The notes below the pieces were generated by a model. That model did not search any database, was not told the DNA's origin, and saw only the letters and a program-made list of their open reading frames with translations. Below are positions 5,296 through 54,456 of a stretch of DNA of 64,000 nucleotides, one piece after another. The DNA is taken from the NCBI GenBank assembly GCA_903834195.1, contig CAILIB010000020.1:14084-78083 (forward strand), read 5' to 3'. Numbering within the stretch: the stretch's first letter is position 1; each line of letters opens with the position of its first letter. The position numbers and the translations under genes are program-made. This DNA comes from an uncultured Candidatus Berkelbacteria bacterium. GTDB taxonomy: Bacteria; Patescibacteriota; UBA1384; CAILIB01.

Positions 5296-5324
5296 TTGTA
5301 AGGGCCGGAAAAGGTCCGTATACT
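5296..5324 (+). promoter_or_regulatory. Candidate sigma70-type promoter of ftsA (TTGTAA-17 nt-TATACT)
   Basis: The -35 TTGTAA is at 5296-5301, followed by a 17-nt spacer and the -10 TATACT at 5319-5324. The ftsA ATG lies only about 8 nt downstream, which implies a near-leaderless transcript. Confidence 0.3.
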
Positions 5325-5332
5325 ACGTTTAT

Positions 5333-6571
5333 ATGAGTCAAAGAAACGTTATTGTCGGTATCGATGTAGGCAGCACTAAAATTGCTACTACTATTGGTCA
5401 CATGCAGGAGAATGGTATCGATATCATTGGAGTTGGCTATGCCGCATCCAATGGACTTCGAAAGGGAATGGTTGTTGATATTGAAGAAACAGTATCTTCT
5501 ATCTCAGCCTCACTTGAAGAAGCTGAGCGCATGAGCGGACTACCAGTTACAGAAGCTGTGGTATCCATTGGTGGAATCCACATCCAATCTTCAGCTTCAA
5601 AAGGTGTAATTGCTGTTTCAAGCCCAAATGGAGAAATTACAGATAACGATGTACTTCGGGTACTCGACGCTGCACGCGCAGTAAGTGTCCCACCTAACCG
5701 TGAAATCCTTCACGCTCTCCCACGCAGTTACGCAATTGATGGACAATCTGGTATTAAAGACCCATTAGCCATGACTGGTATCCGCTTAGAGGTTGATACT
5801 CAGGTGATCAGTGGAGCAACCGCTCCAATTAAGAACTTGAATAAGTGCTTAGCTCAGGCAGGTGTAAATGTTACTGAAATGGTATTTACTCCACTTGCAG
5901 CAGCACGAGCAGTTCTTTCAAAGCGACAACGCGAAATTGGTGTATGTATCTTAGATATCGGTGGAAGCACAACGAGCTTCGCTATATTTGAAGAAGGTGA
6001 CGTACTTCATGCAGGAGTACTCCCAATTGGCGCCGCACACATTACAAACGATATTGCGATCGGACTTCGCACTTCTATTGATAATGCTGAAATTATCAAA
6101 GTTAAACACGGTTCAGCCCTTCCTGAAAAAATTGATCCAGACGTTGAAATTGATCTTGCAAAAATTGATAAGCATGAAGAAGGCAAAATTAACCGCAAAT
6201 ACGTAGCTGAGATCATCGAAGCCCGTATGCACGAGATTCTTACCATGGTCCGCGATGAACTTCGTAAAGTAGGCCGAGAAGGTACATTGCCTGCCGGAAT
6301 TATCCTTACCGGAGGAGGTGCAAAACTGGACGGCATTGTGGAAATGGCCAAACATGTTCTCAAATTGCCTGTACAGGTTGGGCAACTCACACATGATGTC
6401 TCCGGTATGGTTGACAACATATCCGACCCTCTGTATGCTTCAAGTGTCGGATTGATGCTTTGGGGTATGGAAGCTACAAATGCTTCCTCAAGCCACAAAC
6501 GCTCACATTCTAATGCCTTGGGGGGAGCATTGGATCGCGCAAAAACCTTGTTCAAGAATATCCTGCCGTAA
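5333..6571 (+). CDS. ftsA: Cell division protein FtsA
   Basis: An actin-like ATPase with N-terminus VGIDVGSTKIATTIG and with S(I/V)GG and ILTGGGA motifs. It is immediately followed by ftsZ. Confidence 0.9.
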   Translation: MSQRNVIVGIDVGSTKIATTIGHMQENGIDIIGVGYAASNGLRKGMVVDIEETVSSISASLEEAERMSGLPVTEAVVSIGGIHIQSSASKGVIAVSSPNGEITDNDVLRVLDAARAVSVPPNREILHALPRSYAIDGQSGIKDPLAMTGIRLEVDTQVISGATAPIKNLNKCLAQAGVNVTEMVFTPLAAARAVLSKRQREIGVCILDIGGSTTSFAIFEEGDVLHAGVLPIGAAHITNDIAIGLRTSIDNAEIIKVKHGSALPEKIDPDVEIDLAKIDKHEEGKINRKYVAEIIEARMHEILTMVRDELRKVGREGTLPAGIILTGGGAKLDGIVEMAKHVLKLPVQVGQLTHDVSGMVDNISDPLYASSVGLMLWGMEATNASSSHKRSHSNALGGALDRAKTLFKNILP

Positions 6572-8539: not shown

Positions 8540-11500
8540 ATGCCAACCAGTTCTACTCCATTAGTTCATCGTTTTTTCACTACGCCTGATGTCGAACCAT
8601 TCGACATGGTTGACTGGGAAAAGCGCAATTCAAAAATTATCAATGAAAAAGGAACCACCATCTTTGAACTAAAAGATGCTGAGATTCCAGCAGAGTGGAC
8701 TCAACTTGCCACTGATATTGTAGTTTCAAAGTACTTCCGCAAAGCAGGTGTACCAGAAACCGGTAATGAAGTAAGTGTTCGTCAAGTTATCTACCGCATT
8801 GCGCGCAGTATTCGTGAAGCTGGTGAGTCATTCGGCAACTACTTTACGAGCAAGGAAGAAGCCGACGCATTTGAAAAGGAACTTACGTATATCCTTGTTA
8901 CTCAACGCGGCGCATTTAACTCACCAGTATGGTTTAATTGTGGCCTCTATCAACGGTATGGTATTGAGGGAACTCACGGCAACTGGTACTGGGATTTCGA
9001 CAACAACAAGATTAATCAGCTCGAACACAACTACGTGCGCCCACAGTGTTCTGCCTGTTTCATTCAGGGTGTGAGTGATGACCTTATGGACATGTTCGAC
9101 CTCTTAAAAGCTGAGGCGACACTGTTTAAATACGGATCTGGAACTGGTACCAATTTCTCGAATATCCGTGGACGTGGCGAAATGCTATCCGGCGGAGGAA
9201 GCTCCTCTGGACTACTCTCATTCTTGAAAGTATTTGATGCAGCTGCTGGATCTATTAAGTCAGGTGGAACAACACGTCGTGCCGCCAAGATGGTTTGTCT
9301 CGACATCGATCACCCAGAAATTATGGATTTCATTAACTGGAAAGTTACTGAAGAAAAAAAAGTAGCAGCACTGGTTGCTGGAGGATATAGCTCAGATTTC
9401 AATGGTGATGCATACGGTACAGTAACTGCGCAAAACTCCAACAACTCAGTACGCGTTACTGACGAGTTCATGAAAGCTGTTGCTGAAGATGGCACTTGGA
9501 ACACAATAGCCCGTACAACAGGTGGAGTAATGAGCACACTACGTGCTCGAGAAATCTGGGATGCTCTTGGTAAGGCTGCCTGGCAATGTGCCGACCCTGG
9601 CGTGCAGTACGATACAACAGTGAACGACTGGCATACGTGTTCGAACACAGATCGCATCAATGCGTCTAACCCATGTTCCGAGTACATGTTCTTGGACAAC
9701 TCAGCATGTAACTTAGCATCAATTAACTTAATTAAGTTTCTTGATGATGAGGGACACTTTGACATCGAAGCGTACCGTCAAGCGATTCGCATTCTCTTTG
9801 TAGCTCAAGATATTCTGGTTGACTTCTCTTCCTACCCAACCAAGATGATTGGCCAAAACAGTCACGATTACCGTCCTCTCGGTCTTGGCTACGCCAATAT
9901 TGGAACACTTCTCATGTGTAAGGGAATTGCCTACGATAGCCCAGAGGCATTTGCAATCACAGGTGCACTAACTGCAATTCTAACCGGACATGCCTACGTA
10001 GTATCTTCAGAAATGGCAGCCCTTAAGGGACCATTCAACGGCTACGCCAAAAATAAGCAGCCAATGATCCGGGTCATGAAGAAGCACCGTGATGCTTCGT
10101 ATCAAATTAGCGAAGAATTCTGCCCTGAGAACCTTCTTCTTGCTGCTCAGGAAGACTGGGAAGAAGCTGTCCGTCTTGGTGAAATCAACGGCTACCGAAA
10201 CGCGCAAGCCACAGTTATTGCTCCTACTGGAACCATTGGTCTTCTCATGGACTGTGATACAACTTCAATCGAACCTGACTTTGCGCTTGTGAAGTTCAAG
10301 AAGCTTGCAGGAGGTGGACACTTCAAGATTGTGAACCAATCTGTTCCAACCGCGCTCGCGAACCTCGGGTACAGCCAGAAGGAAATTGACGATATTATTA
10401 CCTACGCCGTTGGTACTGGATCACTTTCAGATGCTCCATTTATCAACCGTGATTCACTCATGGCACGTGGTATTACATCAGAAGATATCGCTAAAGTTGA
10501 GAAGCTTCTCCCAAGCACATTTGAACTTGCTCATACCTTCAACGGAATGAATATCAGCGAAGCAAGTCTCGTTGGTGCAGATTTGCCAGCAGATTCATTC
10601 AGCAATCCTTCATTCGACTTCCTTAAAGCGATCGGCTTTACTGCGAAAGAAATTGAAGAAGCAAACAAATTTGTCTGTGGAATGATGACAGTAGAAGGTG
10701 CACCTCATTTGAAAGAGGAGCACTTACCAATCTTCGATTGTGCCAACAAATGCGGAAAGTACGGCACTCGCTTCATCGAACCTATGGGACACGTTCGCAT
10801 TATGGCAGCTGCCCAGCCATTTATCTCTGGTGCTATCTCAAAAACTGTAAACCTACCAAACGAGGCTACAGTTGATGAAATCAAGGACATCTACCTACAA
10901 GGTTGGAAACTTGGACTAAAGGCCATCGCCATGTACCGCGACGGTTCTAAGCTTTCACAGCCACTGAATAGCGCGGGGACTAAAGACAAAGACGCTGACA
11001 AGAACGAAGAGGTGAAAGAAGTTGGAATTAAGCCAGCTGCAGAAATTGCATCTGCACCAGTGGGAGTTCGTCGACGTCTCGCAGATGAACGTGAATCTGT
11101 AACTCACAAGTTCTCAATTGCTGGTCATGAAGGCTTCATTACTGTTGGACTGTATGAAGACGGCACACCAGGCGAAATCTTCATCCGCATGTCCAAGATG
11201 GGAAGCGTACTTGCAGGTCTCATGGACTCATTCGCAATTTCAATCTCAATTGGTCTACAGTACCAAGTTCCGCTCGAAGTACTTGTGAACAAGTTCAGTC
11301 ACGTGCGTTTCGAACCTTCCGGAATGACTACTAATCCAAACATTCGAATCGCTAAGTCAATCGTTGATTACGTATTCCGATGGATGGGAATGAAGTTCCT
11401 CGACCTCGATTCTCAACTGCAAATCGGCTACAACAACATGCCAAAAGCAATGGAGTCTGAAGTTGACGATATCACTGGCTCCTCAGCTACACTCACCATT

Positions 11501-11791: not shown

Positions 11792-14563
11792 ATGTCTGAA
11801 CACGCACTTACCTCTGAACAACTGGCGGCCGTCACCCACAAGGACGGTCCTTGTTTAGTAGTTGCCGGTGCTGGTACTGGAAAAACTACAGTAATTACAC
11901 AACGGATTGCACATTTAATTCAGGAACATGGCGTAACTCCTGATCAAGTTCTTGCGTTAACATTTACTGACAAGGCTGCTGGCGAAATGCAGGGGAGACT
12001 AGATGAGCTATTGCCATACGGAACATTCATTACAACTTCTACATTTCATGGCTTTTGTAATGATTTAATTCGTCGGCACGCCTATCGAATTGGAATTAAT
12101 CCAGAAGCTCGCCTTATAACTGAAGCTGATCAGACGGCAATATTGCGCGAGTACATTGAGCAACTACCACTTCGGCACTATCGTCGAACCTACAATCCAA
12201 CTCCACTTTTAAAGCAGATCGCCCACTATATTGAAAATGCCAAAGAAGCTCAGCTACAACCTGAGCAACTTATCACACATGCTGAAAATGCTATTAAAAA
12301 TGCATTTGATGAGGCTGAAGCTGAGTCTGCTGAACAGTATTTGGAATTAGCTCAATGCTACAAGGTTGCTGCACAGCTCTACGAAAAACTCGAGGTGCTA
12401 ACCTACGCAGATCTTTTAAGACATACCCGAGACATCCTTCAAAGTTCGGCTTCAGTTCGAAAAAAGGAGCAGGATCGTTTTCAGTATCTTTTAATCGACG
12501 AGTATCAAGACACAAACAGTATTCAGGCTGAAATTGCCTATTTACTTGCAGGTGATCGTGCCAATTTATTTGTTGTAGGGGATGATGATCAAGCAATTTA
12601 CCGTTTTCGTGGTGCCAACGTAAAGAATATTCTCGATTTCAAAGAGCGCTTTCCAAACGCGGTAGTAGTAACGCTTACCGAAAACTACCGATCGACCCAG
12701 CCAATTTTGGATGCTGCATATAAACTGATTCAGAATAATAACCCCCACCGGCTTGAGACCTACCTCAACATTAGTAAGAAACTAAACTCCAACAAAGAGG
12801 GTACTGTAGAGCCGATTTATCTACACCACAGCACTGGCGCACATGAGGCAGAAAATGTTGCGAGTGAAATTGAACGACTCATAACTTCTGGTGAATTTGC
12901 TGCAACAGATATTGCCATCATCGCTCGTTCTCACAACCAACTTGATCCTTTTGAAGAAGAGCTTCAAACGCTAAAGGTTCCAATAAATCGAATTAAGGAA
13001 GGCAATTTCTATCAAGAACCAAGTGTAGTACAAGCTTTGGCATATTTACGCTTTCTGAGTGCACCTCAAAATAGTGAGAATCTTTTTCACTTACTCACCG
13101 GTGAGCCTTTTAGCATTGCAGGGGAAGACGTAATTAACTGGAATGTAAGTGCGCGTAAAAATCACCTCAGTCTCTGGGATACGCTCAATAAACCTGATTC
13201 AGATCTGTCAGAATCACTAAGTTTTGCAGTTCAATTCTACAAAAGTGCACTCCACGAGCATGCGTCTGATACGCCATCCACTGCCTTACGACTCTATATT
13301 CACGAATCTAAGTGGCAGACTAAACTTGTTGATGCCGGCGAGGAACGTGCAGCAATTCACCTCATGAGCTTATACAATCAGGCACGTACATTTCAGCTAC
13401 TTCACCAGCCAACCAGTGTAGCTAGTTTTGTTGACCACTGTGATCGACTCATTTCCAGTGGAGAGAATATTAATGTTCAGTCAGAAGTTGATACAGCTCG
13501 AGAAGGGGTTACGCTTATCACTGCCCACAGTAGCAAAGGTCTCGAGTTCCCAGTGGTTTTTGTAGTTAACATGGTCATGCGCCGCTTTCCACTCCAAATT
13601 AACGGGGGAGATCTAAAGCTTCCTGCAGAATTAATTACACCACTTAAGGATAATGTTCCTCACGAAGAAGAACGTCGGCTCGCATATGTCGCGTTCACAC
13701 GTGCAAAAGAACTTCTTTATATAACTGATGCTGAGCGCTACGGAGCTAATAAGACTACTTCAAAAGCCTCGCCATTTATTGCTGAATCTTTAGGAATTGA
13801 TATGCCGCCTGAATTTGCCGATCAACCCCTGCGAAGCATTGCGTTTACTACTCAAGATACACCTGATACACGTGAACCTCTTCGTTTTCCTAGCCAGTTA
13901 AGCGCATCGGCACTAGAAGCTTTCGACAGTAATCCTGCCCGTTTTTACGAACAGTACGTCATGCAGATTATTCCTGAGGATCTGGTTGCAATCGAGTTTG
14001 GTAATGCTGTGCACAATACACTTCGTGACGTTCTCAACGCGCGACGTGAGCATATTTCATTAGATATCGTAAAAACGTTTACTCAGTACTGGGTAGGTGA
14101 AGGATATATTACTGCGGAGATTCGCGATGAGGAGTTCAAAGAGGGTGTAGACATGGTAGTCCGATATTTAGAAATGCTCGGTACAGACTACTGCCCACCG
14201 TTAATAGAAGAAACTCTCAGTTTACGTCTACCAAATGGATTCCGCGTTGTAGGAAAGGTAGATTGTATTGAAGATACTGGAAGTGGTCACTTACGTATTG
14301 TGGATTACAAAACCGGCAGTAAAAGCGCGAAGGAATCTGATGTACGAGACAATCTGCCACTTGCCATTTATGCTGCAGCACTTACCCAACAAGGAAAAGT
14401 TGTCGATGAAGTATGTCTTCGATACTTACGCACAGGAAGTCATCCAAACTTCAAAATTACCCAAAGTTTTATAGATACAAAGGTTACATACACCGAGGAA
14501 CTCGTAGAACGGATTCGTTCTGCCTATAAGATGCGACAGTTTCCGGATACTGGAAAGTTCTAG
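11792..14563 (+). CDS. UvrD/PcrA-family helicase fused to a C-terminal PD-(D/E)XK (RecB-like) nuclease domain
   Basis: The N-terminal Walker A GAGTGKTT sits in UvrD helicase motifs, including DEYQDTN. The C-terminus carries IVDYKTG and a Cys cluster typical of a RecB/AddB-type nuclease. Confidence 0.75.
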   Translation: MSEHALTSEQLAAVTHKDGPCLVVAGAGTGKTTVITQRIAHLIQEHGVTPDQVLALTFTDKAAGEMQGRLDELLPYGTFITTSTFHGFCNDLIRRHAYRIGINPEARLITEADQTAILREYIEQLPLRHYRRTYNPTPLLKQIAHYIENAKEAQLQPEQLITHAENAIKNAFDEAEAESAEQYLELAQCYKVAAQLYEKLEVLTYADLLRHTRDILQSSASVRKKEQDRFQYLLIDEYQDTNSIQAEIAYLLAGDRANLFVVGDDDQAIYRFRGANVKNILDFKERFPNAVVVTLTENYRSTQPILDAAYKLIQNNNPHRLETYLNISKKLNSNKEGTVEPIYLHHSTGAHEAENVASEIERLITSGEFAATDIAIIARSHNQLDPFEEELQTLKVPINRIKEGNFYQEPSVVQALAYLRFLSAPQNSENLFHLLTGEPFSIAGEDVINWNVSARKNHLSLWDTLNKPDSDLSESLSFAVQFYKSALHEHASDTPSTALRLYIHESKWQTKLVDAGEERAAIHLMSLYNQARTFQLLHQPTSVASFVDHCDRLISSGENINVQSEVDTAREGVTLITAHSSKGLEFPVVFVVNMVMRRFPLQINGGDLKLPAELITPLKDNVPHEEERRLAYVAFTRAKELLYITDAERYGANKTTSKASPFIAESLGIDMPPEFADQPLRSIAFTTQDTPDTREPLRFPSQLSASALEAFDSNPARFYEQYVMQIIPEDLVAIEFGNAVHNTLRDVLNARREHISLDIVKTFTQYWVGEGYITAEIRDEEFKEGVDMVVRYLEMLGTDYCPPLIEETLSLRLPNGFRVVGKVDCIEDTGSGHLRIVDYKTGSKSAKESDVRDNLPLAIYAAALTQQGKVVDEVCLRYLRTGSHPNFKITQSFIDTKVTYTEELVERIRSAYKMRQFPDTGKF

Positions 14564-14611
14564 TAAGGACCTGGCGTGTACGGAGAATGTTTGGTATAGT
14601 CATTATATGCA

Positions 14612-14770
14612 CAAATTAAAAGTCGCCTCACGGTAGGAATCATGCGTAAGTGCACCTACGGTGCACGTTCGATACTTTTAATTTGCGCATACACCTCCTT
14701 TCCTTAACAGGAGTCGCCTCACAGCTTGAACCATGCATACGTGCACCTACGGTGCACGTTCGATACTCCT
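14612..14770 (+). repeat. Two tandem ~56-nt direct repeats, each a nested hairpin (outer stem + inner GTGCACC/GGTGCAC hairpin)
   Basis: Repeat 1 (14621-14676) and repeat 2 (14712-14767) share AGTCGCCTCAC...ATGC..GTGCACCTACGGTGCACGTTCGATACT. Repeat 1 is flanked by a 12-bp perfect inverted repeat (CAAATTAAAAGT/ACTTTTAATTTG) and repeat 2 by AGGAGT/ACTCCT. Confidence 0.6.
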
Positions 14771-14818
14771 TCAAGCGAACTAATAAACACACAATATACC
14801 CAAGTTAGTACTCCCTAA

Positions 14819-15859
14819 ATGGATATAATCCTTGCTCTCACAACACTAATTTTTGCTGCGGCACTTGTTTTTGTTGTGCTCAAACAAAAGCCAAAAGTTT
14901 CTCCAGAGCAACAACAGATGGAGTTGCAGGCGATAATTCAACAAAGTACCCAGCAACAACTTCAGACAATCTTACTCCAGCTAAACCAGCACCAGAGTGT
15001 TCAACAGAACAGCGCTACACAACTTCATAACCGCGTAGCTGAAACTGGTAAGGTGGTGTACGAACTCCAGAGCAAATTAACTGCTCTAGAAGAAGGGAAT
15101 AAACGCATCCTCGACATGAGTAAGGGGATTACCGATTTGCAAAATATTCTCCAGGCACCAAAACTTCGTGGCGAACGTGGTGAAATGTGGCTTGAAGAAC
15201 TACTTGCACAGATGATTCCGCGCAACCGTTTCAAGATGCAACATCATTTCAAAAGCGGTGAGATTTGTGATGCGGTAATCATGCTACGTGATGACCTCAT
15301 TCTCCCAATTGATTCAAAGTTTTCGCTAGAAAACTTCAAGAAAATGATTGCCTGTGAAGATAAAACTGAGCAAAAGGTATACGAGAAGAACTTTAATACC
15401 GACATCAAAAAGCGCATTGATGAAATTGCCAAGAAATACATCCTGCCAGCCGAGGGAACGCTCAGTTTTGCATTTATGTATATTCCAGCTGAAAACGTGT
15501 ATTACCAGGCTTTTGTTGAGGACACTGCCAATAACAATCTTCAGCGTTACGCCTTCGATAAACACGTAATCCCGGTTTCACCGAATTCAATTTATCCATA
15601 TCTTGAAATCATGATGTTCGGTTTGCGCGGGCTTGAAATTGAAAAAGGTGCCCATCAGGTTCAACAAAGCTTATCCGGTATACAGAAAGAATTAGGTAAA
15701 TTTGAGGAAGATTACCGCAAAGTTGGAGTTCACCTAAAGAACGCTCAGGGCAGTTTCGACACAAGTGATAAGCGACTCTCAAACATTCAAAACAAACTAG
15801 AAACTATTGGTGCTAAAGATACGCCAGAAAACCTCTTAACTGCGGAGATTATCGAATGA
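14819..15859 (+). CDS. rmuC: DNA recombination protein RmuC
   Basis: An N-terminal TM helix and a Q-rich coiled coil are followed by the RmuC core GERGEMWLEELLAQMIP...DAVIMLRDDLILPIDSKF. Confidence 0.8.
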   Translation: MDIILALTTLIFAAALVFVVLKQKPKVSPEQQQMELQAIIQQSTQQQLQTILLQLNQHQSVQQNSATQLHNRVAETGKVVYELQSKLTALEEGNKRILDMSKGITDLQNILQAPKLRGERGEMWLEELLAQMIPRNRFKMQHHFKSGEICDAVIMLRDDLILPIDSKFSLENFKKMIACEDKTEQKVYEKNFNTDIKKRIDEIAKKYILPAEGTLSFAFMYIPAENVYYQAFVEDTANNNLQRYAFDKHVIPVSPNSIYPYLEIMMFGLRGLEIEKGAHQVQQSLSGIQKELGKFEEDYRKVGVHLKNAQGSFDTSDKRLSNIQNKLETIGAKDTPENLLTAEIIE

Positions 15860-22167: not shown

Positions 22168-25100
22168 TTATAATTCAATCTTTATTCCCTCTTCTAATGA
22201 GATAGGCTCACCTAACGTACTCATTAAGTGCACGTTTTGCTGTACATTTGGGAGCACTTCCCGCTCTTCAACGACTTGTGGGACGTTCGATGTATGTTCG
22301 GTTAGGGAAGGCAAGCTGGGGGAGTCATCAATAATCATCGGGACTAATTCTGATCCTTCCTCAACACCTCCATTCATCCCCTCAAGGCTCCTTTGCTGTT
22401 CCTTTTCAGCAGCTTTAGCAGCTCGACGAGCAAGAACATCAGATTCCTTTTCACCCAAATACCACCTGTTCCCTCCGCGTTGAGACACTTCCTTATATGC
22501 CCAGCCATCTATGACTTTGAGTGGCTTTTCACGGATCGGTCGACGTTCCCTATTCTGATCTTCCTGAACCTGGTTAACAGGTTCAATTATCGCTGCACTT
22601 GGAACAATTTGCTCAGGAACAACTACTTCTGGTGCAGAAACTACTCCCTGCTCTACTACTTCTTCAGGTTTGAGTCCCCTACTCGGCTCTACAACGACTG
22701 GCGGCGGCGTTGTAAATGTTCTCTGTTGTACAGGTTTAAATGGTGCATCAGGAATAACCACTGGACGTGGAGCTGCAACCTGTTGACGCTGCTGTTGATT
22801 TATGTTCGGTTTCTGTTCGTTATGATATGAAACAGGCTGGTTGAGGATTTGCGCTGCAATTTTTTGCGCCTCTTCTGCCTCACGTTTTCGCTTATACCCA
22901 GCAGTCTCATCTATAATATCTTCAACTTGCTCTCTAGGACGAGCAAAGTGTTGATGGGAATACTCAACTACCCTATCCCTAAAATTTGTATCAACTTTCT
23001 TTGGTGGTAATGTCATCGCTGAAAATGCCTGCGAAGCAACACCATCTACCAGCAACTTAATATAGACCCGAGCCATTTGCAGGTTCACCATATCATCAGG
23101 ACCAAATACAGGTGCAAATTCACGAGCTAAGGCTTCAGCATCTTTTGAACCAACACGGAAACAGATAATACTACCAACGTTACCAAAGACAGCCTCACGT
23201 ACTTCATCCGCCATCTGATCGATATACTGGTGAGCAATGGTTAAGCCAAGATTATACTTACGAGCTTCTGAGAGAATCGTCGCAAAAGAATCAGTTGCAA
23301 AGTTCTGGAACTCGTCTACGTACAAGAAACAGTCTGGACGCTGATCAAACGACACATCAGCACGACTCATCGCCGCAAGCTGTACACGTGTAATCATCAT
23401 TGTTCCAAGTAGTGCTGAATTGTCTTCCCCGATTTTACCCTTTGACAGGTTTACGACGAGAATTTTTTGCTCGTCCATCACTTGGCGAATATCAAAAGCA
23501 GACTTTGGCTGACCAACAATATTACGAATCAAGCTTGTTGAAAGAAATTGCCCAACCTTGTTCAAGATTGACCCCATTTCTTCAACCTGTTGTTTTTGCT
23601 CTTTGGCAGCCCATTCATTTTTCCAGAAATCGAGCACAACTGGATCTTTGATCTGTGGAATTACCCAGTTACGAAAACCAGGGTCGGTCAAAATACGTGG
23701 AATACCAAGCATAGTTGGATTCTCAGTATCGAGCAGGGCAAGTGTTGCATTTCGTAGGATATACTCCAAACGAGGTCCCCAAGAGTTTCCGAAAATCTTT
23801 TTAAGTGCACCAACGAATCCTGAAGCGATATTCCCCTTTTGATCTGGATGAGAAATATCGAGCACATTAAATGCAATCGGAAATTCGCGATCAGATGGAT
23901 CAAATACAATCGTATCTTTAATACGATGCTCTGGAACTGACTCAATCACTTTATCTGCAAGCTCTCCGTGCGGATCCACCACAATAACGCCACGACCCTC
24001 ATTAATGTCATCAATGATCATGTTCTCTAGCAGCGTTGACTTTCCTGCACCAGATTTACCAATGATATAGATATGACGCTTACGATCGTTCAATTTAATA
24101 CCAAACTCTTCAACGTGATTACGGAAATCAGTTTTACCAAGTACAGTAAGATCCATTGCAGGAACTTCACTACTCAACGGAACATTCGGTGGAGCTTCAG
24201 CTTTCTTACTACCGGCCCATGAAATTGCTCCACTTTCCACACTAGCAGCAGGGAAGTGATACACCGACGCAAGCTCTTCAATATTGAGCACATTCCCCTT
24301 CTTTTCGAATTCACGGGCAATGTACTGCAACCAACTTGGGTAGTGATCAATTTTAATCTCACCACTCTTGAACCCATTCAGGTTTGTAGTATTGTACTGC
24401 TTGAACGCAGCTAGCGTAGCTTGAATCCGTGCACGCGCACTATTCTCATCCGTACCGATTACAACTAAACGAAAAATAGTTGAGAACCCAAGCTTAGTAA
24501 TCTTTGATTCAATCCCTTTAAGCGCAGCTTCCTGGGGCGAAGATAACTTAGGTGGCTCCCCTGGTTTAGATTCCTCAAAACCAGTTCCCGGGCTAGCGAT
24601 TTCTCGAATTAACTTTACACTAAACCCTGCTGCTCGCATCACTGGATGAGGCTTTTTAGCACCAGGCGTCTTCCCTGCACGCATTGCACCAACGTGAGAC
24701 ACCCCTTTATTTTGCCAATCATCCCCTACTGGTTGAACAACCATTTGTAACCAAATTTGTTCCTTATTTTCAAGATTGTCCATTACAGCCATCAACCCAG
24801 CGAGTGGGTCAATATCAGAACTTGAATAGGTCTTAATTGGGTATACATCATCTTTGGTGAGCTGAATCTCGGCAATTGCTACGTGGAGACCTTCAAGATG
24901 TGCCTCAGCTGTGTAATCTGTAACTTGTTTTATTTGCAACTCGGGGTACTGCGCATAGAGCTGACCTTCAACAAACTCCCGCAACTGCAATGGTGTAAAG
25001 ACATAAAAGACAATTGAATCTTCTTTGGCGACAATCTCAAAAGAAACGTACTCCTGTACAACCTGATCACCCTTAAAGATTCCATGGAGAGCCGAAAAAA

Positions 25101-25227
25101 ACTGCTCTGCAGATGCAGGGCCTTTCTCATTCTTCTTAGGCACCTGAATTGCGAGCACAACAAAGCTCTGAGAGGCCAGCCAGTCAGCACGACGCTTGAG
25201 ATTTTTCGTACTCTTAAAGAGTGCCAT
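22168..25227 (-). CDS. TraD/VirD4-family (type IV coupling protein-like) P-loop ATPase, paralog 1, with ~390-aa unknown N-terminal domain and Q/P-rich C-terminal tail
   Basis: Walker A IIGKSGAGKST is followed by VVDPHGE and then VFDPSDREFPIAFNVLD (compare TraD LNPLDER). Walker B YVDEFQNF and ARKYNLGLTIAHQ...GNVGSIICFRVGSKDAEALAREF match a TraG-D_C-like domain. The N-terminal domain is homologous to that of the paralog at 25889-28393. Confidence 0.6.
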   Translation of the reverse strand: MALFKSTKNLKRRADWLASQSFVVLAIQVPKKNEKGPASAEQFFSALHGIFKGDQVVQEYVSFEIVAKEDSIVFYVFTPLQLREFVEGQLYAQYPELQIKQVTDYTAEAHLEGLHVAIAEIQLTKDDVYPIKTYSSSDIDPLAGLMAVMDNLENKEQIWLQMVVQPVGDDWQNKGVSHVGAMRAGKTPGAKKPHPVMRAAGFSVKLIREIASPGTGFEESKPGEPPKLSSPQEAALKGIESKITKLGFSTIFRLVVIGTDENSARARIQATLAAFKQYNTTNLNGFKSGEIKIDHYPSWLQYIAREFEKKGNVLNIEELASVYHFPAASVESGAISWAGSKKAEAPPNVPLSSEVPAMDLTVLGKTDFRNHVEEFGIKLNDRKRHIYIIGKSGAGKSTLLENMIIDDINEGRGVIVVDPHGELADKVIESVPEHRIKDTIVFDPSDREFPIAFNVLDISHPDQKGNIASGFVGALKKIFGNSWGPRLEYILRNATLALLDTENPTMLGIPRILTDPGFRNWVIPQIKDPVVLDFWKNEWAAKEQKQQVEEMGSILNKVGQFLSTSLIRNIVGQPKSAFDIRQVMDEQKILVVNLSKGKIGEDNSALLGTMMITRVQLAAMSRADVSFDQRPDCFLYVDEFQNFATDSFATILSEARKYNLGLTIAHQYIDQMADEVREAVFGNVGSIICFRVGSKDAEALAREFAPVFGPDDMVNLQMARVYIKLLVDGVASQAFSAMTLPPKKVDTNFRDRVVEYSHQHFARPREQVEDIIDETAGYKRKREAEEAQKIAAQILNQPVSYHNEQKPNINQQQRQQVAAPRPVVIPDAPFKPVQQRTFTTPPPVVVEPSRGLKPEEVVEQGVVSAPEVVVPEQIVPSAAIIEPVNQVQEDQNRERRPIREKPLKVIDGWAYKEVSQRGGNRWYLGEKESDVLARRAAKAAEKEQQRSLEGMNGGVEEGSELVPMIIDDSPSLPSLTEHTSNVPQVVEEREVLPNVQQNVHLMSTLGEPISLEEGIKIEL

Positions 25228-25231
25228 TTAA

Positions 25232-25852
25232 TTATATAAGGTTATCAATTACTGCCCATTTTGCAGGCTTTTCTGACGGCACCATAACCATTACACGATC
25301 ACCTGCTTTTAAGCCGTAGAGTGACATATAGTACGTCACACAGGCAGTGAGAATATTATAGGTTGTTCCTTCATCAGTATCTACAACACAATGGTTTCCT
25401 TCCATACGCAGAGTTCCCGCCATTGTTTTGCGCTCGATAGGCCCGAGTTGTTTGTACAAATATTTACCATCTTTGGTAATGTACAGCTTTAGTGGATCAC
25501 CTTCCACAAGCTTACTCTTACTCGCGTAGTTTGGTAGAACTTGGTAACTCTTACCTTGTGCATCAAGCATGCGCTCACCATCAAAGATACCTTCAATAGC
25601 TTCATCTTCTACACGCGGAGCCATTTGCATAAACCCTACTGGAGTTGCTGTATCAGAACCATCTGCATCTAGAGTAACTCCACTATCTGTAGGTGGAATA
25701 TATGAAGCACTAAGAGGAGTGATGTTTGTACTCGTTGAAACGAGATGTCGTAAGGTACGCACATCATTTTCGATTGTCTCAATAAGTCGGAGGATTCGCT
25801 CTGCATTGAGCTGTCCCGCCGCATCTTCTATGATTTCTGTATTATCTTCCAT
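25232..25852 (-). CDS. Hypothetical protein (coiled-coil N-terminus, beta-rich C-terminus)
   Basis: An ORF of native composition wedged between the two ATPase paralogs, with 4-nt and 36-nt gaps. No recognisable motif was found. Confidence 0.4.
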   Translation of the reverse strand: MEDNTEIIEDAAGQLNAERILRLIETIENDVRTLRHLVSTSTNITPLSASYIPPTDSGVTLDADGSDTATPVGFMQMAPRVEDEAIEGIFDGERMLDAQGKSYQVLPNYASKSKLVEGDPLKLYITKDGKYLYKQLGPIERKTMAGTLRMEGNHCVVDTDEGTTYNILTACVTYYMSLYGLKAGDRVMVMVPSEKPAKWAVIDNLI

Positions 25853-25888
25853 TTGGTGTTTATATTAGTGTTTGTATTGCTTTCTATT

Positions 25889-28393
25889 TCACCGTGATGA
25901 TATCACACTACGTGCACGCATGCGAATTTCAGCCTCTACCACATCCCGATCTCGGCCATACTTTAACCGAGAGAGCTGCCGCACTGCCTCGCCTACCTGA
26001 ATGTTTTCATGTGCATCCGGCGCATAGGATGTAACATTGAACGGCTCGGTAGGAGCACCGTCAATAAGCATCCGAATATAGAAATTATATTTCTCTGTAT
26101 TCACCAGGTCATCTATTTGAACTGGGTCCATTTCCTTCTGGAGGAATTCAGCATCAAGCGCGCCAATACGCCAGGAAATCATGGTTCCAATGTTACCCAT
26201 AATCGCATCGCGCGTATCGTCGTCCAACTGTTTAATAAACTGGTTGGTAATATTAAGTGAAAGAGCGTACTTACGTGCTTCGGACAGAATTGTTGCAAAG
26301 GTTTTAGAGGTAAAGTTCTGGAACTCATCCACATAAAGGAAAAATGGCCGACGTTCTGGTTCTGGTATATTTTGACGTGAAAAAGCCGAAATTTGAATTT
26401 TTCCTGAAATAATCATTCCCAAAAGCTGAGCATTCATTTCACCAAGCAAGCCTTTAGGCAACGTTACGAGGAGAATCTTACCTGAGTCCATGACCTCTCG
26501 GAAATTAAAGGCACTATCTTGCTGACCAATAATTGGTCGCATAATATCGTTACTCGTAAACTGAGTAAGTTTTGAGGTAATATATGGAACAATGTTCTGC
26601 AGCGCTGCGTCTCCCCCAGCTTTTTCAGCTTCTTTCGTCCAGAAGTCTACCACAACTTGGTTACGACATTTGGAAAGCTTCATTTTTCGAAACTCCTCAT
26701 CTGCTAACACTTTTGGAATTTCCATAAGCGTTGAACCACTTTCTGGATCTTCCATCAGGAGCAACATTGCATTGCGCATATACTGTTCGAAAATAGGTCC
26801 ACCTGTCGCACGAAGATCGTACAACTTGTCGAAAATTGAAATCATTTCATTGATCACCATTGTTTTTTGCTCTGGGTAGCGAGCATCAAACTCAAGCAGG
26901 TTCAGTGCAATTGGGCGCGTTGTGTCGGAAGGATCAAAGATGATCACATCTTCAGCCCGTTCTTTTGGAATATGCTTAATAATCCATTCAATAGCGTCAC
27001 CGTTTGGATCCATATAACAGACACCGTGACCATTGCGGATATCTTGCAGAATCATGTTCTGGAACATAACAGTCTTACCAACACCAGTTTTTCCAATCAT
27101 GTAGAGGTGTCGCATACGGTCGGTATACTGCATATACACTGGCAACTGTGCTCCACGGAATTGACTAAATCCAAGTGCCACACCACTGGTTGGCATGTTT
27201 GTAGGTGGCGCCAGTTTACGTGAACCAAGCCATTGAATATTCGGTGTGTCGAGATGACGGTTAGGAAAGTGTAGAACACTTGTCAGTTCTTCTGTGTTCA
27301 TAATCAAATCGGTCTGTGATTTTGCAAAGGTTCGCGTAATATACGGTACCAAAAGATCTCGGTCACCCATATTAGACGTTTTGAACCCATTTGATTCAGG
27401 CGACTGGTACTGCTGGAACGAAGAAAGCATAATCTGCACCTGACTCTTTGCCTCAATTTTTGTGTTTGCGCGCGCCACACACCGAATTTGAACCTCAAGC
27501 GCAACCTTGCTTCCTTTATCTACAAGAAGCTTAGCCTGCTGTTCTTGCAATGCGGTGAGACGAACATTTCCACTACTAATGTTATTGGCTTCATTTGAAG
27601 CTGACTCACTCTCAGAACTAGAAGCAATTGCTTTACCCACCTCTTTAACTCCACCAAAAATCTTGTGCAAAAGGCCCTTCTCTTTTGAACTAAATTGCTT
27701 TCCTTGTTGAACGTTTTGAAGTGCATCTTCAATCGATTTTTGCCACGACTGATCAGCTGGGCGAACTAATATCTGAAAAGCTGCCTTCCCCTGCTGAACT
27801 TTAGAGAGTGAATTTGTAATTGCATTAAGTGGATCACCTTCCAGACTTTTGTACGTCCGAATTGGAAAAATGTACGGTTTAAGCATTTTTAATGCAGCAA
27901 CTTCACTTTCCCCACCTTTTTCAGCAAAAATATCGTAATCGTGCGCAGGTTCAATTTGCGCACTTGGGTACTGAGAGTGAATCTGTCGCTCCATCTGCTC
28001 AATGTACTCACCAGGTGTAACTACGTAGAAATAAATTTCTCCATGATGCGTTACAATTTCAAATGAAAATGTTGGTTGACCATGGATTAATTGACGAAAA
28101 TACTTAGTTTCATGAAAGTGTTGCATCACCGAAAAAACCGGCTCCATTAAGCCAATTAACTCCTTCGGATCACGACGCTCCTCGTCCTCTTTTTGCTGTT
28201 TAGGAAGGAGAACTTTTATGGCTTTCAGGGATTCAAAACGTAGCTTCTCAGATTCTGCCCGCTTTTTTGATATGTAAATCCACACTGCAATGCAGCCTAT
28301 AATCAGCACTGCTGCGGTTATACCGAAAAGCAATCCGGCAGAAATGCCGGAATTGCTTGCAGGACTAGCTGTAGAGTAGTCGTACTGACTCAT
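25889..28393 (-). CDS. TraD/VirD4-family (T4CP-like) P-loop ATPase, paralog 2, with N-terminal TM helix
   Basis: It carries an N-terminal TM helix (GLLFGITAAVLIIGCIAVWIYI), Walker A MIGKTGVGKTV, then MDPNGD and IIFDPSDTTRPIALNLLEF. Walker B LYVDEFQNF is followed by ARKYALSLNITNQ...GNIGTMISWRIGALDAEFLQKEM. It shares the N-domain blocks FYVVTP..QYP and ELTSVLHFP with paralog 1. Confidence 0.6.
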   Translation of the reverse strand: MSQYDYSTASPASNSGISAGLLFGITAAVLIIGCIAVWIYISKKRAESEKLRFESLKAIKVLLPKQQKEDEERRDPKELIGLMEPVFSVMQHFHETKYFRQLIHGQPTFSFEIVTHHGEIYFYVVTPGEYIEQMERQIHSQYPSAQIEPAHDYDIFAEKGGESEVAALKMLKPYIFPIRTYKSLEGDPLNAITNSLSKVQQGKAAFQILVRPADQSWQKSIEDALQNVQQGKQFSSKEKGLLHKIFGGVKEVGKAIASSSESESASNEANNISSGNVRLTALQEQQAKLLVDKGSKVALEVQIRCVARANTKIEAKSQVQIMLSSFQQYQSPESNGFKTSNMGDRDLLVPYITRTFAKSQTDLIMNTEELTSVLHFPNRHLDTPNIQWLGSRKLAPPTNMPTSGVALGFSQFRGAQLPVYMQYTDRMRHLYMIGKTGVGKTVMFQNMILQDIRNGHGVCYMDPNGDAIEWIIKHIPKERAEDVIIFDPSDTTRPIALNLLEFDARYPEQKTMVINEMISIFDKLYDLRATGGPIFEQYMRNAMLLLMEDPESGSTLMEIPKVLADEEFRKMKLSKCRNQVVVDFWTKEAEKAGGDAALQNIVPYITSKLTQFTSNDIMRPIIGQQDSAFNFREVMDSGKILLVTLPKGLLGEMNAQLLGMIISGKIQISAFSRQNIPEPERRPFFLYVDEFQNFTSKTFATILSEARKYALSLNITNQFIKQLDDDTRDAIMGNIGTMISWRIGALDAEFLQKEMDPVQIDDLVNTEKYNFYIRMLIDGAPTEPFNVTSYAPDAHENIQVGEAVRQLSRLKYGRDRDVVEAEIRMRARSVISSR

Positions 28394-28419
28394 TTATTTT
28401 TACCCCCTCCTTAAATTCT

Positions 28420-31400
28420 TCAGGTCGTTTTATGAACAGATGATGCATCAATTGGAGTAGTAAAACCCCCTCTAATTTTTTCCTGTGCAGCAAGTAACTT
28501 AGATATCATCTCTACTCGTGCTGCCCTAAATATTCCACCTTGATCAATATTTCCAGTAATGCCTACATTTTCACGTGCAGCATTCTGAAACTCTCTACCT
28601 GCGTCACCGATGGTACGGAATACCTGATTTTCAGTAAATTGCCGACCTGGGTAAAGATCTCCCATCAAGTACTCACCCAATGCCTGAATATTAATTTCAT
28701 TCTGATTTAGAACATCTGGAATCTGCCCTCCCCATGATCTTGCTCGAGTTACCCATGATTCTTTAATAGCATCTCTATTTAATTCAGAATCACTTATTGG
28801 TAAGAGTTCACGCTCCCCTGCAGCTGGTACCACAGGTGGATTATCAATTCTGTTTCTTAGTCCGGCGAGAAAATCTGCAAACTCGTCAAGATTAAACTCA
28901 CGAGCAACCTCTTCCACCTTACTTAAGCCATCTACTAATTCCTCACTGGAATACTCATTGAATTTGTCTGCATAAATCGTACGCGCAATACCTAGCAACA
29001 CATCATTAGTTAAATCAATTGAATCTAAACCTGTTGGAGTATTAGGAACATTACCCTCTGCAATAATTCTAGCAAAATACTCTCTATAAAATGATTCAAC
29101 ATCACTAACAGTCTTTTTATCATGAATGTCACCCATTTCAATGTAAAGTTTGCCAGCAGCATTATTAAATGCTTGTTCTAGATCTGCTTGAACCACACCA
29201 GCACCTAAAACCTCAGGTATTGCATATTGAATAGCTACTAATCGTTGATGAATGTCATCAGCTGAAAAAGTTGAAATTTGACTTCTCAGTTTTGCATTCT
29301 CTTCATCTGAGAATATTAATTCTACAATTTCATCAGACGAATCATCATCTGCAGGATCAAATGCATTCAACTCTGAGATTAAATCATCTGGTATATCATC
29401 GATCTTTTCTAATCCAATACCTTTAAGTAATTCAGATTCAGGAGTTGGAGCTACTTCTGGAACTTGTAAGACATTGCTTAAAGCATCTTCAGTATTATAT
29501 TCATCACTTGCGAGAAGAGTACCGCGGGCTGTTGTAAGCAGATTGACCAATCGATCCCTATTTCCAGTTCCTGAGGCTATATTTTCTAGTGCATTTAAAC
29601 ACTGTGAAATACGTAGAATAACATCATCCAACATGATATTACTCTCTGATCCAAGAAAGAGATCATGCCCAATCCCCCTAAATGTATGAGGCAGAACTGT
29701 TAACCCTTCAGGTATATCTGCTTGATTAACAAGCACTGTCACTATATCTTTTTCAATCTTTTCCTGACTAATCCTCTCAGTGATATCAATTCCACTATTA
29801 CTAGAATCTAATCGATCTGAGACCGCCATACAAATCGCTGTAAGATCCTCACCATACAAAGCCAGTTCAGGGTTTATGCCAGCTGTTTCAAGTTCGGCAC
29901 GTACATGGAAATATTCAGCTGCTGCATACACAAGACTAGTAGCATTATCCAGGTTAGAAATAGCATTACGAAAACGCTGTAATTTTGCATCAATTTCTAG
30001 GTCAGCCTCACTGTGTGGCTCTGGACGATTATTTAACTCAGACTGCATCAAGCCCATCCACGGATTTGCAACAATCTTTAACTCACGCTTAGCATGCTCA
30101 ACAAATGCACCTTCATCAGCAATATTATTCAGAGCTAAATAGTAAGGATTATCTTGAACTTTAACCCCAGAATCGGTAGAAATTGGATGCGCATCCGGAT
30201 TCACTAAGCGATCATACTGATACTTATTATCTTCAAGCATCTTAGCATGAATACTTTTGAGCTTTTCAGCAATTTGCAGATAAAACTCATGCTCAGCTCT
30301 GGTCTTATTATTAAACTGATCTGGTCGAGTCTTATCGTTATCAGTACTAAACCGTGGGTCCTTTTCTCCATTCCGCGAATCATTTTCATCATCAATATCA
30401 GCCATATTCTTGCGAGCTGCGATACCATTAACAATATCAATAAGCAACTGCAAGCGGTTAGCGTACTCTGTTTTTGCAATTATACTTGTACGATCAGCAA
30501 AACCTTTTGCACGTTCCTGCGGAGTTTGAAGGTAGTTAAACAATCCAGCATCTGAATCTAAGCCAGCCAAAATATCTTCAATAGGTTTCATCCAACCTAA
30601 CTGATGATCGCCACGTACATTCGCTGCCTGGTCTTCACTAAGATTGGCAGGTGCATCATTCGGCGTCACATTTACATGATCTAATACCTGCTCATAGAGA
30701 TTGGAACGTAGAACACTTTCGAGGTCACGATTTTCAGCTTCGATAATCGTTAGCACGTTAACAGCTGCACGAACTTGTTCCTTAGTATATTCCCGAATTT
30801 CTTCAGGATTTAACTTCTTCTTTTCCTTGTCTTTGTCCTTATCCTTGTCTTTATCTTTGTCTTTATCTTTGTCTTTTGAATCTTCACCAACTACTTTAAA
30901 TGCACTTCCAACACGATCCTCACCTCGAGCTAATTCAACTAAGTCTCGGGTCATTTCTTGCCAACGAGGGTGGAACTTGCGACCATTTTCACCAATGATT
31001 TCTTCTGGAACAAACTCAACCATTCCAAGTTTGTCGCCAAGTTCTGTGCGAAGGCCATCAATATATTCTTTATTCTCCAGATCCTTACGTGAAACAACAA
31101 TAACTGCACGAAATTCGCCTTCTGCATTCTCTAGAAGCTTCTTCAAATTTTCAATCTGATCTTTATCAGCAAAGTAAATTGTTCCGCCTTTATCAGCATC
31201 ATTCCATTGAGTATCAGTAATCGCACGAAGTTTATCGAAGAGACCCTCATGACCGTTACGTTTGAGAAACTCACGATGACCCTTTACCTTATTCTGAAGT
31301 TCTTTGAGTTTTTCTCTCCCTGAAAGCTCAGTGGTAATGTCCATCTCATCAATCTTCTTGGCATTCAAACGCCTTTGTTCAGCCTCATCAATCATCTTCT

Positions 31401-37692: not shown

Positions 37693-37907
37693 TTTCCGAG
37701 TTAATAAGGTAATAAAATAAAAAATTCGCTCAGAGACAGAGCGAAACATCACACAACTCGCGTTGATATGCGCCTCGGCAGGACTTCTTCCGTTAGGATG
37801 CCTACTGTCTCTGGTACAAAGATACTTTACCTGATTTCCAGGTTGAGGTCAATACTTGGGTAAAAAAATATGTTTGACCGGGGGTGCCGGCCAAACATGA
37901 AGCGGAT

Positions 37908-40274: not shown

Positions 40275-40325
40275 TGGACCTCCGGTGGTAGTAACGCTCA
40301 GATTCTGAGCTCCCACAATTACGTT

Positions 40326-40390
40326 GATATACCTCTTCAAAACGCTGCCCGACGACGCGGTAAGAGTTGAGGGTTTTGAAGAGGTATATC
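40326..40390 (-). promoter_or_regulatory. Structured rplA 5' leader: 18-bp perfect inverted repeat (GATATACCTCTTCAAAAC / GTTTTGAAGAGGTATATC) around a 29-nt loop
   Basis: The perfect inverted repeat spans 40326-40343 and 40373-40390. The loop carries CCTCAACTCTTAC (mRNA sense). A second small hairpin, GCTCAGAATCTGAGC, lies between this element and the SD. It is a candidate L1 autoregulatory site. Confidence 0.45.
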
Positions 40391-40409
40391 AACTTCTTCT
40401 AATAAATTG

Positions 40410-45736: not shown

Positions 45737-46947
45737 TTTACGCTCTCCTTGCCGATCTCTCGACCTTCGCAATCATAAGAAACCGTGCCTGTGCGACCGT
45801 ACCGGTCAGACCACGAAATCGTGAACTTCGCACGAAGTGCGTAGTTCACTTTAACATAGTCACCCGGTTTTACCCGGGTTGTAAGTTCGTTCGAGTTTCT
45901 GCCAGCGAAATTCCGTTCGGCTACCAGAGAGATCTCAAGGACGTATCCCAGCTTGTCGTTTTGAATGACAAAGTAGTTTTCGTCCTTTCTGATAATCTCA
46001 AATCGTCGGTTAGGCATGGCCATCTCTGTTACGAAATGGCGATACTTCGACGGTTTTACATCGACGGGAGGCTTTCGATCTTCTGGCTTTTTATCACCAT
46101 CCTGATCGAAGTGTTTCCGGGGGTCGATTACGTCGCCGCCAACATCTTCTTGGTTCTGCTTAGAAGGTTCTCTCTGTGCTCGCGCAAGTGCCTCTTCAGC
46201 ACTTTTTCGCTTTGCAATTTCGAGGTCAAGCTGTCGTTGCAGCTCATTGTGCTGAGATGTTTCAGTAGTTAACTGTCCCATATCCGCATCAACTGCATTA
46301 ATAACAGATTGAGGAGTCTCCAACACCGGTATATGGTGCTGGTTAACCCACTCATTAAGCCGCTGGTACCATGAATAAAGTCGCTCTTTCGAAGCTTCGT
46401 TCGGCCATGGATATGTGGTCATAAGCAGGAACGTATCCTTACTTGTTGATCCAGAACCATCCTTTGCAAAGGTCGGACCAAGTCCGAAAATCTTCACATC
46501 AGTATAGTCCCGACCAGTTTTGTAATCCCAGATCGTAGCAAAGGCTGCGACTTTTTGGAGGATTTTTGTGTCATCGAGCGAAAGCTCAACGTACAATCCC
46601 CCGTCCGTGTCGTGATTAAGTGGAAGTTTTACTCCGGCGAACCGAACGTAGAATTTCCCTTCCTCTGCCTTACCAAGCGCATCTTTTTTGCGCCTGTCTA
46701 CAATGCCATCGAGATAGCATCGCAACTTACCAGCTTTGAATCCCCTCGGAACGAAGGGAAATACCATCTGGTCAGGCCCAAGAGGAATCAGGTCAACATC
46801 GTTGACGCGAACCGTTGGGACATTGAGGATAGTTCCGTTCCCTGCCGTTGTACGGTGGGTGACGGAAGCCTGGGACATGACCGTTGCAGGGAGAATCCCT
46901 ACGCCGATCATGGCCAGAGTGACGAGGAGGGTGTTTCGAAAAATCAT
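45733..46947 (-). CDS. Secreted hypothetical protein (signal peptide, central coiled coil), GC-shifted island gene 1
   Basis: The signal/TM MIFRNTLLVTLAMIGVGILPATVMSQA and a coiled-coil segment ELQRQLDLEIAKRKSAEEALARAQ are present, with no recognisable enzymatic motif. Confidence 0.45.
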   Translation of the reverse strand: MIFRNTLLVTLAMIGVGILPATVMSQASVTHRTTAGNGTILNVPTVRVNDVDLIPLGPDQMVFPFVPRGFKAGKLRCYLDGIVDRRKKDALGKAEEGKFYVRFAGVKLPLNHDTDGGLYVELSLDDTKILQKVAAFATIWDYKTGRDYTDVKIFGLGPTFAKDGSGSTSKDTFLLMTTYPWPNEASKERLYSWYQRLNEWVNQHHIPVLETPQSVINAVDADMGQLTTETSQHNELQRQLDLEIAKRKSAEEALARAQREPSKQNQEDVGGDVIDPRKHFDQDGDKKPEDRKPPVDVKPSKYRHFVTEMAMPNRRFEIIRKDENYFVIQNDKLGYVLEISLVAERNFAGRNSNELTTRVKPGDYVKVNYALRAKFTISWSDRYGRTGTVSYDCEGREIGKESVK

Positions 46948-54403: not shown

Positions 54404-54456
54404 TTTTTATATTTGTATGAATCTGTATGAATTATTCATATCATACTAAACTAAAT

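Follow-up and report, generated by a model that had tools for sequence, protein, structure and literature searches.

Tandem hairpin repeats in a lineage-specific insertion that may have come between promoter and start codon of rmuC in a Candidatus Berkelbacteria genome

Why does the rmuC gene of an uncultured Candidatus Berkelbacteria bacterium lie 255 nt behind its upstream neighbour, when in related lineages the corresponding gap is 20 to 79 nt, and what are the two hairpin-forming repeats that stand in this gap? The stretch analyzed here, called the window, comprises 64,000 nt of contig CAILIB010000020.1, and all coordinates are those of the window unless a contig is named. An earlier note on this DNA had placed the repeats between a helicase-nuclease gene and rmuC, which the Pfam identities of both genes confirm: the upstream open reading frame (ORF) encodes a UvrD-PDDEXK helicase-nuclease (11792-14563, by domain annotation) and the downstream one, on the + strand, RmuC (14819-15859; PF02646 and homologue search). 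The answer that we favour, with slightly less than even confidence, is that the repeats are two copies of a small structured element, similar to repetitive extragenic palindromes (REP) or miniature inverted-repeat transposable elements (MITE), carried in a lineage-specific insertion that would have split the rmuC promoter from the start codon and would now be part of the rmuC leader.

The two units, each of 56 nt, lie on the + strand at 14621-14676 (copy 1) and 14712-14767 (copy 2) as direct repeats (direct-repeat family D1) with a period of 91 nt. In register they share 49 of 56 bases (88%, where about 85% had been claimed earlier; blastn-short E = 2e-10), and a covariance model of the 56-nt unit, run on the window with filters off, scores them at 92.6 and 93.8 bits, respectively. 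All seven differences fall at unit positions 12-29, that is in the middle 18 nt (P = 0.0023 for such clustering), whereas the copies agree throughout the first 11 and the last 27 nt; the ends of the unit are therefore under constraint. The 35-nt spacer between the units (14677-14711, + strand), which contains CACCTCCTTTCC (AAGGAGGTG on the - strand), is unrelated to the other flanks in similarity comparison, and the sole significant match among flanks and spacer is an inverted one, between the left flank and the spacer. Since spacer and flanks are unrelated while the unit ends are identical, a plain 91-nt tandem duplication followed by neutral drift is ruled out.

Each unit carries the perfect inner hairpin GTGCACC-TAC-GGTGCAC that had been described, detected in copy 1 by pattern search and in RNA and DNA folds (14650-14666, + strand) and present exactly in copy 2 (14741-14757), where it lies within a hairpin of 9 bp (ACGTGCACC-TAC-GGTGCACGT; 14739-14759, + strand; inverted repeat I13 and fold). 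The pattern occurs in the window only at these two places, against 0.12 matches expected by chance. Copy 1 is closed by the left-flank/spacer inverted repeat (I2, 18 nt, 94% complementary), with the 5′ arm TATGCACAAATTAAAAGT at 14606-14623 and the 3′ arm ACTTTTAATTTGCGCATA at 14674-14691, paired in both RNA and DNA folds; the helix is longer than the 12 bp reported before and has one mismatch, which reads A.C on the + strand and G.U on the - strand. The 6-bp outer stem AGGAGT/ACTCCT of copy 2 (14709-14714 and 14765-14770; inverted repeat and fold) is as reported. Its 5′ arm is Shine-Dalgarno-like and has alternative partners in CCTCCT at 14694-14699 and ACTCCC at 14811-14816. A unit is thus made of an AGT/ACT end helix with its flanks, the junction strands CGCCTCAC and GTTCGAT, the variable 18 nt and a GC-rich hairpin of 7-9 bp, after which both copies continue with an identical 3′ tail of 10 nt (GTTCGATACT).

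Both copies fold more stably than shuffled sequences: copy 1 has z = -4.8 as RNA of the + strand and z = -5.0 as DNA, and copy 2 has -3.0 and -3.9, respectively. The RNA of the - strand is more stable still, copy 1 reaching -35.8 kcal/mol against -31.1 on the + strand and copy 2 -25.4 against -21.0. Complementarity of the flanks outside the 56-nt unit extends over 9 perfect bp, one mismatch and 5 further bp in copy 1 and over 3 bp in copy 2; measured at all positions of the window, at least 9 bp occur with a probability of 3e-5 and at least 3 bp with one of 0.017, so that even the flanks of copy 2 are mildly unusual. The repeat pair is real and non-random. What two sequences do not bear out is the classic covariation signature of a functional RNA which the earlier note had seen in the outer stems. 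Six outer pairs can be compared between the copies, four of them are the same in both (A..T and AGT/ACT) and two are compensatory (AA/TT versus GG/CC), a level that was reached in 126 of 500 shuffles and is not significant with two sequences. The tandem pair, the perfect inner hairpin and the closing helices of different sequence thus stand, and the claim of covariation is weak.

How the pair came to its place is best seen in relatives. By its RmuC homologues the source organism belongs to the candidate-phyla-radiation (Patescibacteria-type) bacteria, and RmuC of the closest relatives sampled is only 63-74% identical. The gene order nrd, UvrD-PDDEXK helicase, rmuC, rluD-like is common to the window and four related lineages, in which the helicase-rmuC gap measures 39 nt (contigs L007/L008), 45 nt (L009), 79 nt (L010/L011) and 20 nt (L019). 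In three of the four lineages (L007/L008, L010/L011, L019) a near-invariant block, TGTACGG(A/T)AAATGTTTGGTATAGT, is followed after 6 nt by ATGGAAAT; L009 has the variant TATTAT, 6 nt and ATG. The 25-nt promoter block TGTACGG..AATGTTTGGTATAGT of the relatives (L007 3970-3994, L019 9970-9994, also L010/L011) recurs almost unchanged in the window on the + strand at 14575-14600 (GTGTACGGAGAATGTTTGGTATAGT), including the extended -10 element TGGTATAGT (14592-14600). Directly behind it, alignment with the gaps of the relatives reveals a lineage-specific insertion of 210 nt (14601-14810, + strand) which holds both units, and behind the insertion the ancestral spacer is resumed, with ACTCCC and TAA before the ATG at 14819 (14811-14821, + strand, by alignment with L007). 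The empty site of L007 reads TGGTATAGT, ACTCTC, ATGGAAATA and the filled site of the window TGGTATAGT, the 210 nt, ACTCCCTAA, ATGGATATA, a presence/absence relation of the kind used to recognize MITEs; in other words, the insertion separates the -10 box from the ancestral start, ACTCCC..ATGGATAT from 14811, the counterpart of TAGT, ACTCTC and ATGGAAAT in L007. TAGT stands at both edges of the insertion (14597-14600 and 14807-14810), a 4-nt match that may be due to chance, and no such duplication surrounds the single units. Similarity comparison gave no significant sign that the right end of the insertion contains an inverted copy of the promoter. The units are absent from this intergenic region in every relative available.

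Since the A of the ATG in the relatives lies 7 nt downstream of the extended -10 element, the rmuC mRNA is predicted to be leaderless there, and the same layout (TGGTATAGT, 6 nt, ATG) recurs in the window at 2922-2939. At many genes of the window a -10-like hexamer is found 4-9 nt before the ATG with no Shine-Dalgarno sequence (e.g. 2922-2939, 5313-5335, the 41320 region and the 56387 region), and leaderless mRNAs appear to be common in the source genome; other genes of this genome use AAGGAG. The 25-nt block upstream of rmuC is nearly unchanged despite the 63-74% identity of RmuC, which is more than a -10 box needs, and it may therefore hold an additional regulator site. A sequence present twice upstream of lexA (TGTTCGGTAT; L016 7791 and 7825) resembles TGTTTGGTAT of this block.

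On the reading that we favour, a non-coding hairpin module arrived, or was duplicated, inside the 210-nt insertion, which would have landed between the extended -10 element and the start codon of a formerly leaderless gene. The promoter block is probably still used, because it is still conserved, and would then direct initiation at A14607, the second base of the copy 1 helix. As the block is intact, the units downstream of it are probably transcribed as part of a new leader of about 212 nt, of which they would form the first 160 nt or so, with the predicted 5′ end at the base of the 18-bp helix that closes copy 1 and with each unit folding independently. Neither a Shine-Dalgarno sequence nor a -10-like hexamer is present near the rmuC ATG, so the long leader would function without the former. 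The present effect of the insertion would be structural, namely a 5′-terminal stem-loop, long helices and occlusion of AGGAG, rather than sensing of a ligand; the helicase-rmuC gap contains no terminator-like site or other expression platform.

Further copies were sought in the window with exact patterns and patterns allowing three mismatches, with blastn-short and with the covariance model, and none was found. Three other samples yielded contigs (L016, L017 and L018) that match the window with 100% identity over 10.9, 11.2 and 2.9 kb; L016 adds 9,968 nt on the left and L017 4,665 nt on the right, which brings the available sequence of the source genome to 78.6 kb. Across samples the population is hence clonal, and variation within the species, in which the element could be compared, is lacking. 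Both L016 and L017, which come from two other assemblies of the same strain, end at about 11,970-12,010, in the 5′ part of the helicase gene, where the 82.7-kb contig reads through. The covariance model detected no copy in about 89 kb from relatives (L007-L015 and L019).

Searches for known families were equally empty. Rfam returned only two chance-level matches for 14300-15100 at E <= 10, both outside the units, and for the whole window at gathering score only the L10 leader at 37709-37832, so that the units match no known RNA family in either mode. Coding on the + strand was ruled out by stops or by the occurrence of non-synonymous changes only; a transfer RNA-like reading of GTTCGATAC as a T arm was rejected on inspection because no T stem can form, and a hammerhead or other ribozyme on the strength of the junction sequences and Rfam. 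Nor is the palindrome a LexA operator, being absent upstream of lexA, with no GAAC-N4-GTTC box in the gap, and GTGCAC is not avoided as a restriction site might be (28 observed, 19.8 expected). Peptides from all six frames of the unit had no match among 5.8 billion proteins, and nothing was found in the literature on such elements in Patescibacteria.

In public collections, a scan of genome contigs for GTGCACCNNNGGTGCACGTTCGA, a 20-base pattern for which we estimate about one match by chance, returned only a palindromic repeat family in a Cellulomonas metagenome-assembled genome and one Solirubrobacteraceae site. A metagenome pattern scan gave one unrelated high-GC match, two viral pattern scans gave nothing, and blastn against phages and plasmids nothing useful, with no similarity to any plasmid record. 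The repeats of the Cellulomonas genome (DAIQRI01; L001-L004 and L006) and of L005 are dispersed palindromes of 71-77 nt in which nested outer arms enclose the core GTGCACC-NNN-GGTGCAC-GTTCGA(T). Beyond the bases forced by the search, their similarity to the units of the window amounts to 0-3 nt, and with about one chance match expected the shared core looks coincidental. In copy L003 the outer arms are different yet complementary, and the design of a conserved core with a variable stem is therefore also found in ordinary dispersed palindromic repeats.

Comparison with known classes delimits what the element may be called. REP sequences, together with bacterial interspersed mosaic elements (BIME) and REPINs, which are mobilised by RAYT transposases, likewise are short intergenic hairpin units that occur in clusters, have a conserved core in a longer imperfect palindrome and are transcribed passively with their neighbours (PMC3116915). 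They differ from the present pair in that here only two copies are known, in direct and not inverted orientation, that the unit is mostly non-palindromic, that RAYT was not seen in the 78.6 kb and that no 5′ GTAG-type tetranucleotide stands at the hairpin foot. In particular, direct repeats with a 91-nt period do not have the orientation of a REPIN doublet.

With MITEs and the palindromic elements of reduced genomes (Correia, RUP, Rickettsia) the locus shares a lineage-specific, promoter-proximal insertion of 100-200 nt, long stem-loops, a possible target duplication (TAGT/TAGT) and a second hairpin insertion in the same genome. The difference is that in our case the interior is conserved and the inverted repeats vary: the arm is TATGCACAAATTAAAAGT in copy 1 and AGGAGT in copy 2, with no more than AGT/ACT and one A..T pair in common, and neither dispersed copies nor a partner transposase were found in the 78.6 kb. 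Because the pair departs from REP/REPIN in orientation and, as far as the 78.6 kb show, in copy number, and from MITEs in its terminal repeats, we say only that it works like a small intergenic hairpin repeat. The ends of IS200/IS605 elements and their ORF-less derivatives also have two similar subterminal hairpins in the same orientation and a conserved 3′ sequence, and lack terminal inverted repeats. This is no more than a likeness; the distances from hairpin to end are off those of known members, TnpA and TnpB were not seen in the 78.6 kb, and the 18-bp left-flank/spacer helix is left unexplained. A CRISPR array (clustered regularly interspaced short palindromic repeats) is not indicated by two 56-nt repeats, 88% identical and differing in the middle, with one 35-nt spacer and no cas domains nearby, nor an integron attC site by GTTCGAT, which does not conform to GTTRRRY and has neither an RYYYAAC partner at the other end nor an integrase nearby.

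Two precedents speak for a repeat carried in the leader. The first is in the same genome, where another hairpin-forming insertion (54623-54745) is missing from the relative L014. Over about 30 kb of gene-by-gene comparison, intergenic regions have gained sizeable sequence only here and upstream of rmuC, and since both insertions form hairpins the view that the source lineage acquires palindromic insertions gains support. The other precedent is given by the dispersed Cellulomonas palindromes, with their conserved core and variable but complementary arms. Several observations weigh against such an origin. The outer inverted repeats differ between the copies, the opposite of MITE terminal repeats, the orientation of the copies is direct, unlike that of REPIN doublets, and the complementary flanks of both copies, including those of copy 2 with p = 0.017, are more readily explained by selection for a closing helix than by insertion at random. 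Moreover, only two adjacent copies exist in the 78.6 kb of source genome, with none in L016, L017 or L018, and the pattern scans of genome, metagenome and viral collections and the blastn searches of phages and plasmids found no true relative. Finally, no transposase, integrase, RAYT or HUH protein appeared in the Pfam annotation of most genes of the 78.6 kb, in which several proteins remained unmatched and a few ORFs lay outside the scan.

The same flanking helices and conserved promoter could be explained by a selected cis-acting leader RNA on the + strand, with the modules acting as protein- or ligand-binding domains or as stability or processing elements that control rmuC, a possibility that we consider unlikely. 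The units do lie downstream of an intact conserved promoter, both are closed by helices of different sequence, in each of them the conserved strands lie opposite one another at the junction and variation is left to the middle, and the lack of other copies in the 78.6 kb is expected of a locus-specific element. In such a leader the 5′-terminal helix would protect the mRNA, and translation of a 9-codon micro-ORF (14607-14636, + strand; MHKLKVASR*, ATG CAC AAA TTA AAA GTC GCC TCA CGG TAG), whose ATG stands exactly at +7 from the -10 box as in the leaderless geometry of the relatives, would open module 1. Module 2 would sequester AGGAG, a motif with three alternative CUCC partners, and a 30-codon ORF with a TTG start (14726-14818, + strand), which ends in TAA directly before the rmuC ATG, would provide translational coupling. 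Both ORFs were read from the sequence; a function of the 9-codon one is conjectural, and the small ORFs of either strand are leads that rest on a handful of bases and lack comparative support. Tandem riboswitch aptamers, the paired hairpins of guanidine-II and 5′ stabiliser stem-loops similarly have two similar modules in series in a leader, or a stem-loop at the 5′ end; unlike them, the present pair has no Rfam match, no conservation before orthologues and no expression platform, and stands in a leader that is itself a recent insertion. Against selection for such an RNA are also the lack of the element at the rmuC loci of all relatives, where the gene appears leaderless, the lack of a terminator, of a Shine-Dalgarno sequence at rmuC that could be sequestered and of significant covariation in two sequences, the A.C mismatch in the + strand helix of copy 1 and the better folding of both copies on the - strand. 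Three checks that the earlier note had named, for a match in Rfam, for further copies or homologues in the collections and genome sequences searched and for a counterpart in relatives, all came out negative; they count against a conserved regulatory element, and the evidence for a conserved functional RNA fails. As the relatives share only 63-74% RmuC identity, a young function confined to this lineage is conceivable: a leaderless repair gene would have been made leadered, transcription would begin on the AUG of the 9-codon ORF, and translation of that ORF, which extends through the 5′ arm of module 1, would remodel two modules that control access to AGGAG and to the second small ORF with its TAA-ATG junction. 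We regard this as very improbable; if true, a candidate-phyla-radiation bacterium would have built a translation-attenuation or coupling device by duplicating a hairpin module.

The better folding of the - strand raises the prospect that products of that strand, an antisense or structured RNA or two micro-ORFs, are made from the -10-like sequence GGGTATATT (14802-14792, - strand), which we judge very unlikely. Each unit would be a three-way junction, and the peptides would be short and basic, sharing HRRCTYA. A three-helix model of the - strand is 95% paired and absorbs the changes between copies as G.U. As read from the sequence, a candidate micro-ORF of 16 codons (MRKLKVSNVHRRCTYA*; 14640-14690, - strand) runs through copy 1 behind AAGGAGGTGT and ATG, and a 12-codon counterpart in copy 2 (14719-14757, - strand) follows AAGGAG, 8 nt and GTG; AAGGAGG occurs only three times in 128 kb counting both strands, and within the shared frame the copies differ at three bases, each of them a third codon position. 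Such statistics rest, however, on two to three substitutions, the peptides of 12-16 amino acids have no homologue among the 5.8 billion proteins, and the ORF of copy 2 has its start codon within the perfect hairpin. In the promoter match the T of the TG motif is missing, the promoter scan of 14300-15100 reported no site, and no terminator was found in the gap; these micro-ORFs are a weak lead. Equally remote, in our estimation, is a role of the repeats as protein sites in DNA, with the 17-bp palindromes as paired operators or with hairpin and 10-nt tail as substrate of an HUH nuclease (a nic site of oriT, a rolling-circle origin or an IS200/IS605 end). HUH substrates usually consist of a hairpin followed by a conserved single-stranded tail, both copies have the same perfect palindrome with the same 3′ tail, their DNA folds are stable, and the genome encodes LexA and, 7.4 kb away, a TrwB-like coupling ATPase. 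Yet the palindrome occurs neither upstream of lexA nor elsewhere in the 78.6 kb, its centres at about +51 and +142 from the predicted start are atypical for operators, genes for a relaxase, Rep or TnpA were not seen among the scanned proteins, and no plasmid record is similar.

If the repeats were indeed acquired as a hairpin element, the locus would be a clean natural example, from a tiny candidate-phyla-radiation genome, of such a repeat coming between a leaderless promoter and the start codon. Small structured insertions would then still be gained by such genomes, and a gene that had been leaderless could tolerate a long leader even where a Shine-Dalgarno sequence is missing. Should the leader prove regulatory instead, a cis-regulatory RNA would be seen here in the making, which is rare. 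In neither case does the element, on present evidence, define a widespread new class of RNA.

The second insertion belongs to a pair of hairpins between rplK and an mfd-like gene (54404-54790), each with z of about -9.5; neither shows detectable homology to the rmuC units by comparison or inspection. The hairpin at 54623-54745, about 120 nt long and near-perfect (minimum free energy -52.8 kcal/mol, z = -9.5), directly follows the rplK terminator and is single-copy in the window. As it is absent from L014, we take it for a second lineage-specific, MITE-like insertion. Its neighbour at 54511-54606 (about 96 nt) consists of a 50-nt three-way junction closed by a helix of 23 bp and is kept in L014 (about 9795-9895; 75% Mfd identity) with three compensatory pairs (GTG/CAC to ACA/TGT). 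It has no Rfam match, its loop reads AAAGGAGGGGCAAAG on the - strand with TGATATAAT just upstream on that strand, and it is probably an undescribed structured RNA.

Elsewhere in the window, an inverted repeat of 24 bp at 40323-40393 (96% complementary, 23-nt loop) lies between pth and the rplA (L1) ORF on the - strand and could be an L1 leader or a terminator. The gap of about 420 nt after cysS (46947-47365) is of similar size in L014 (17066-17517), has no ORF matching Pfam and contains a 32-nt imperfect inverted repeat at 47117-47265; Rfam at E <= 1 gave only a chance microRNA match, and the gap may harbour a non-coding RNA gene. The coupling ATPase mentioned above, a TrwB/VirD4-like protein of 1019 amino acids, is encoded on the - strand at 22168-33576 and is followed there by proteins of 206, 834 and 1718 amino acids without Pfam match, an arrangement that is kept in L019.

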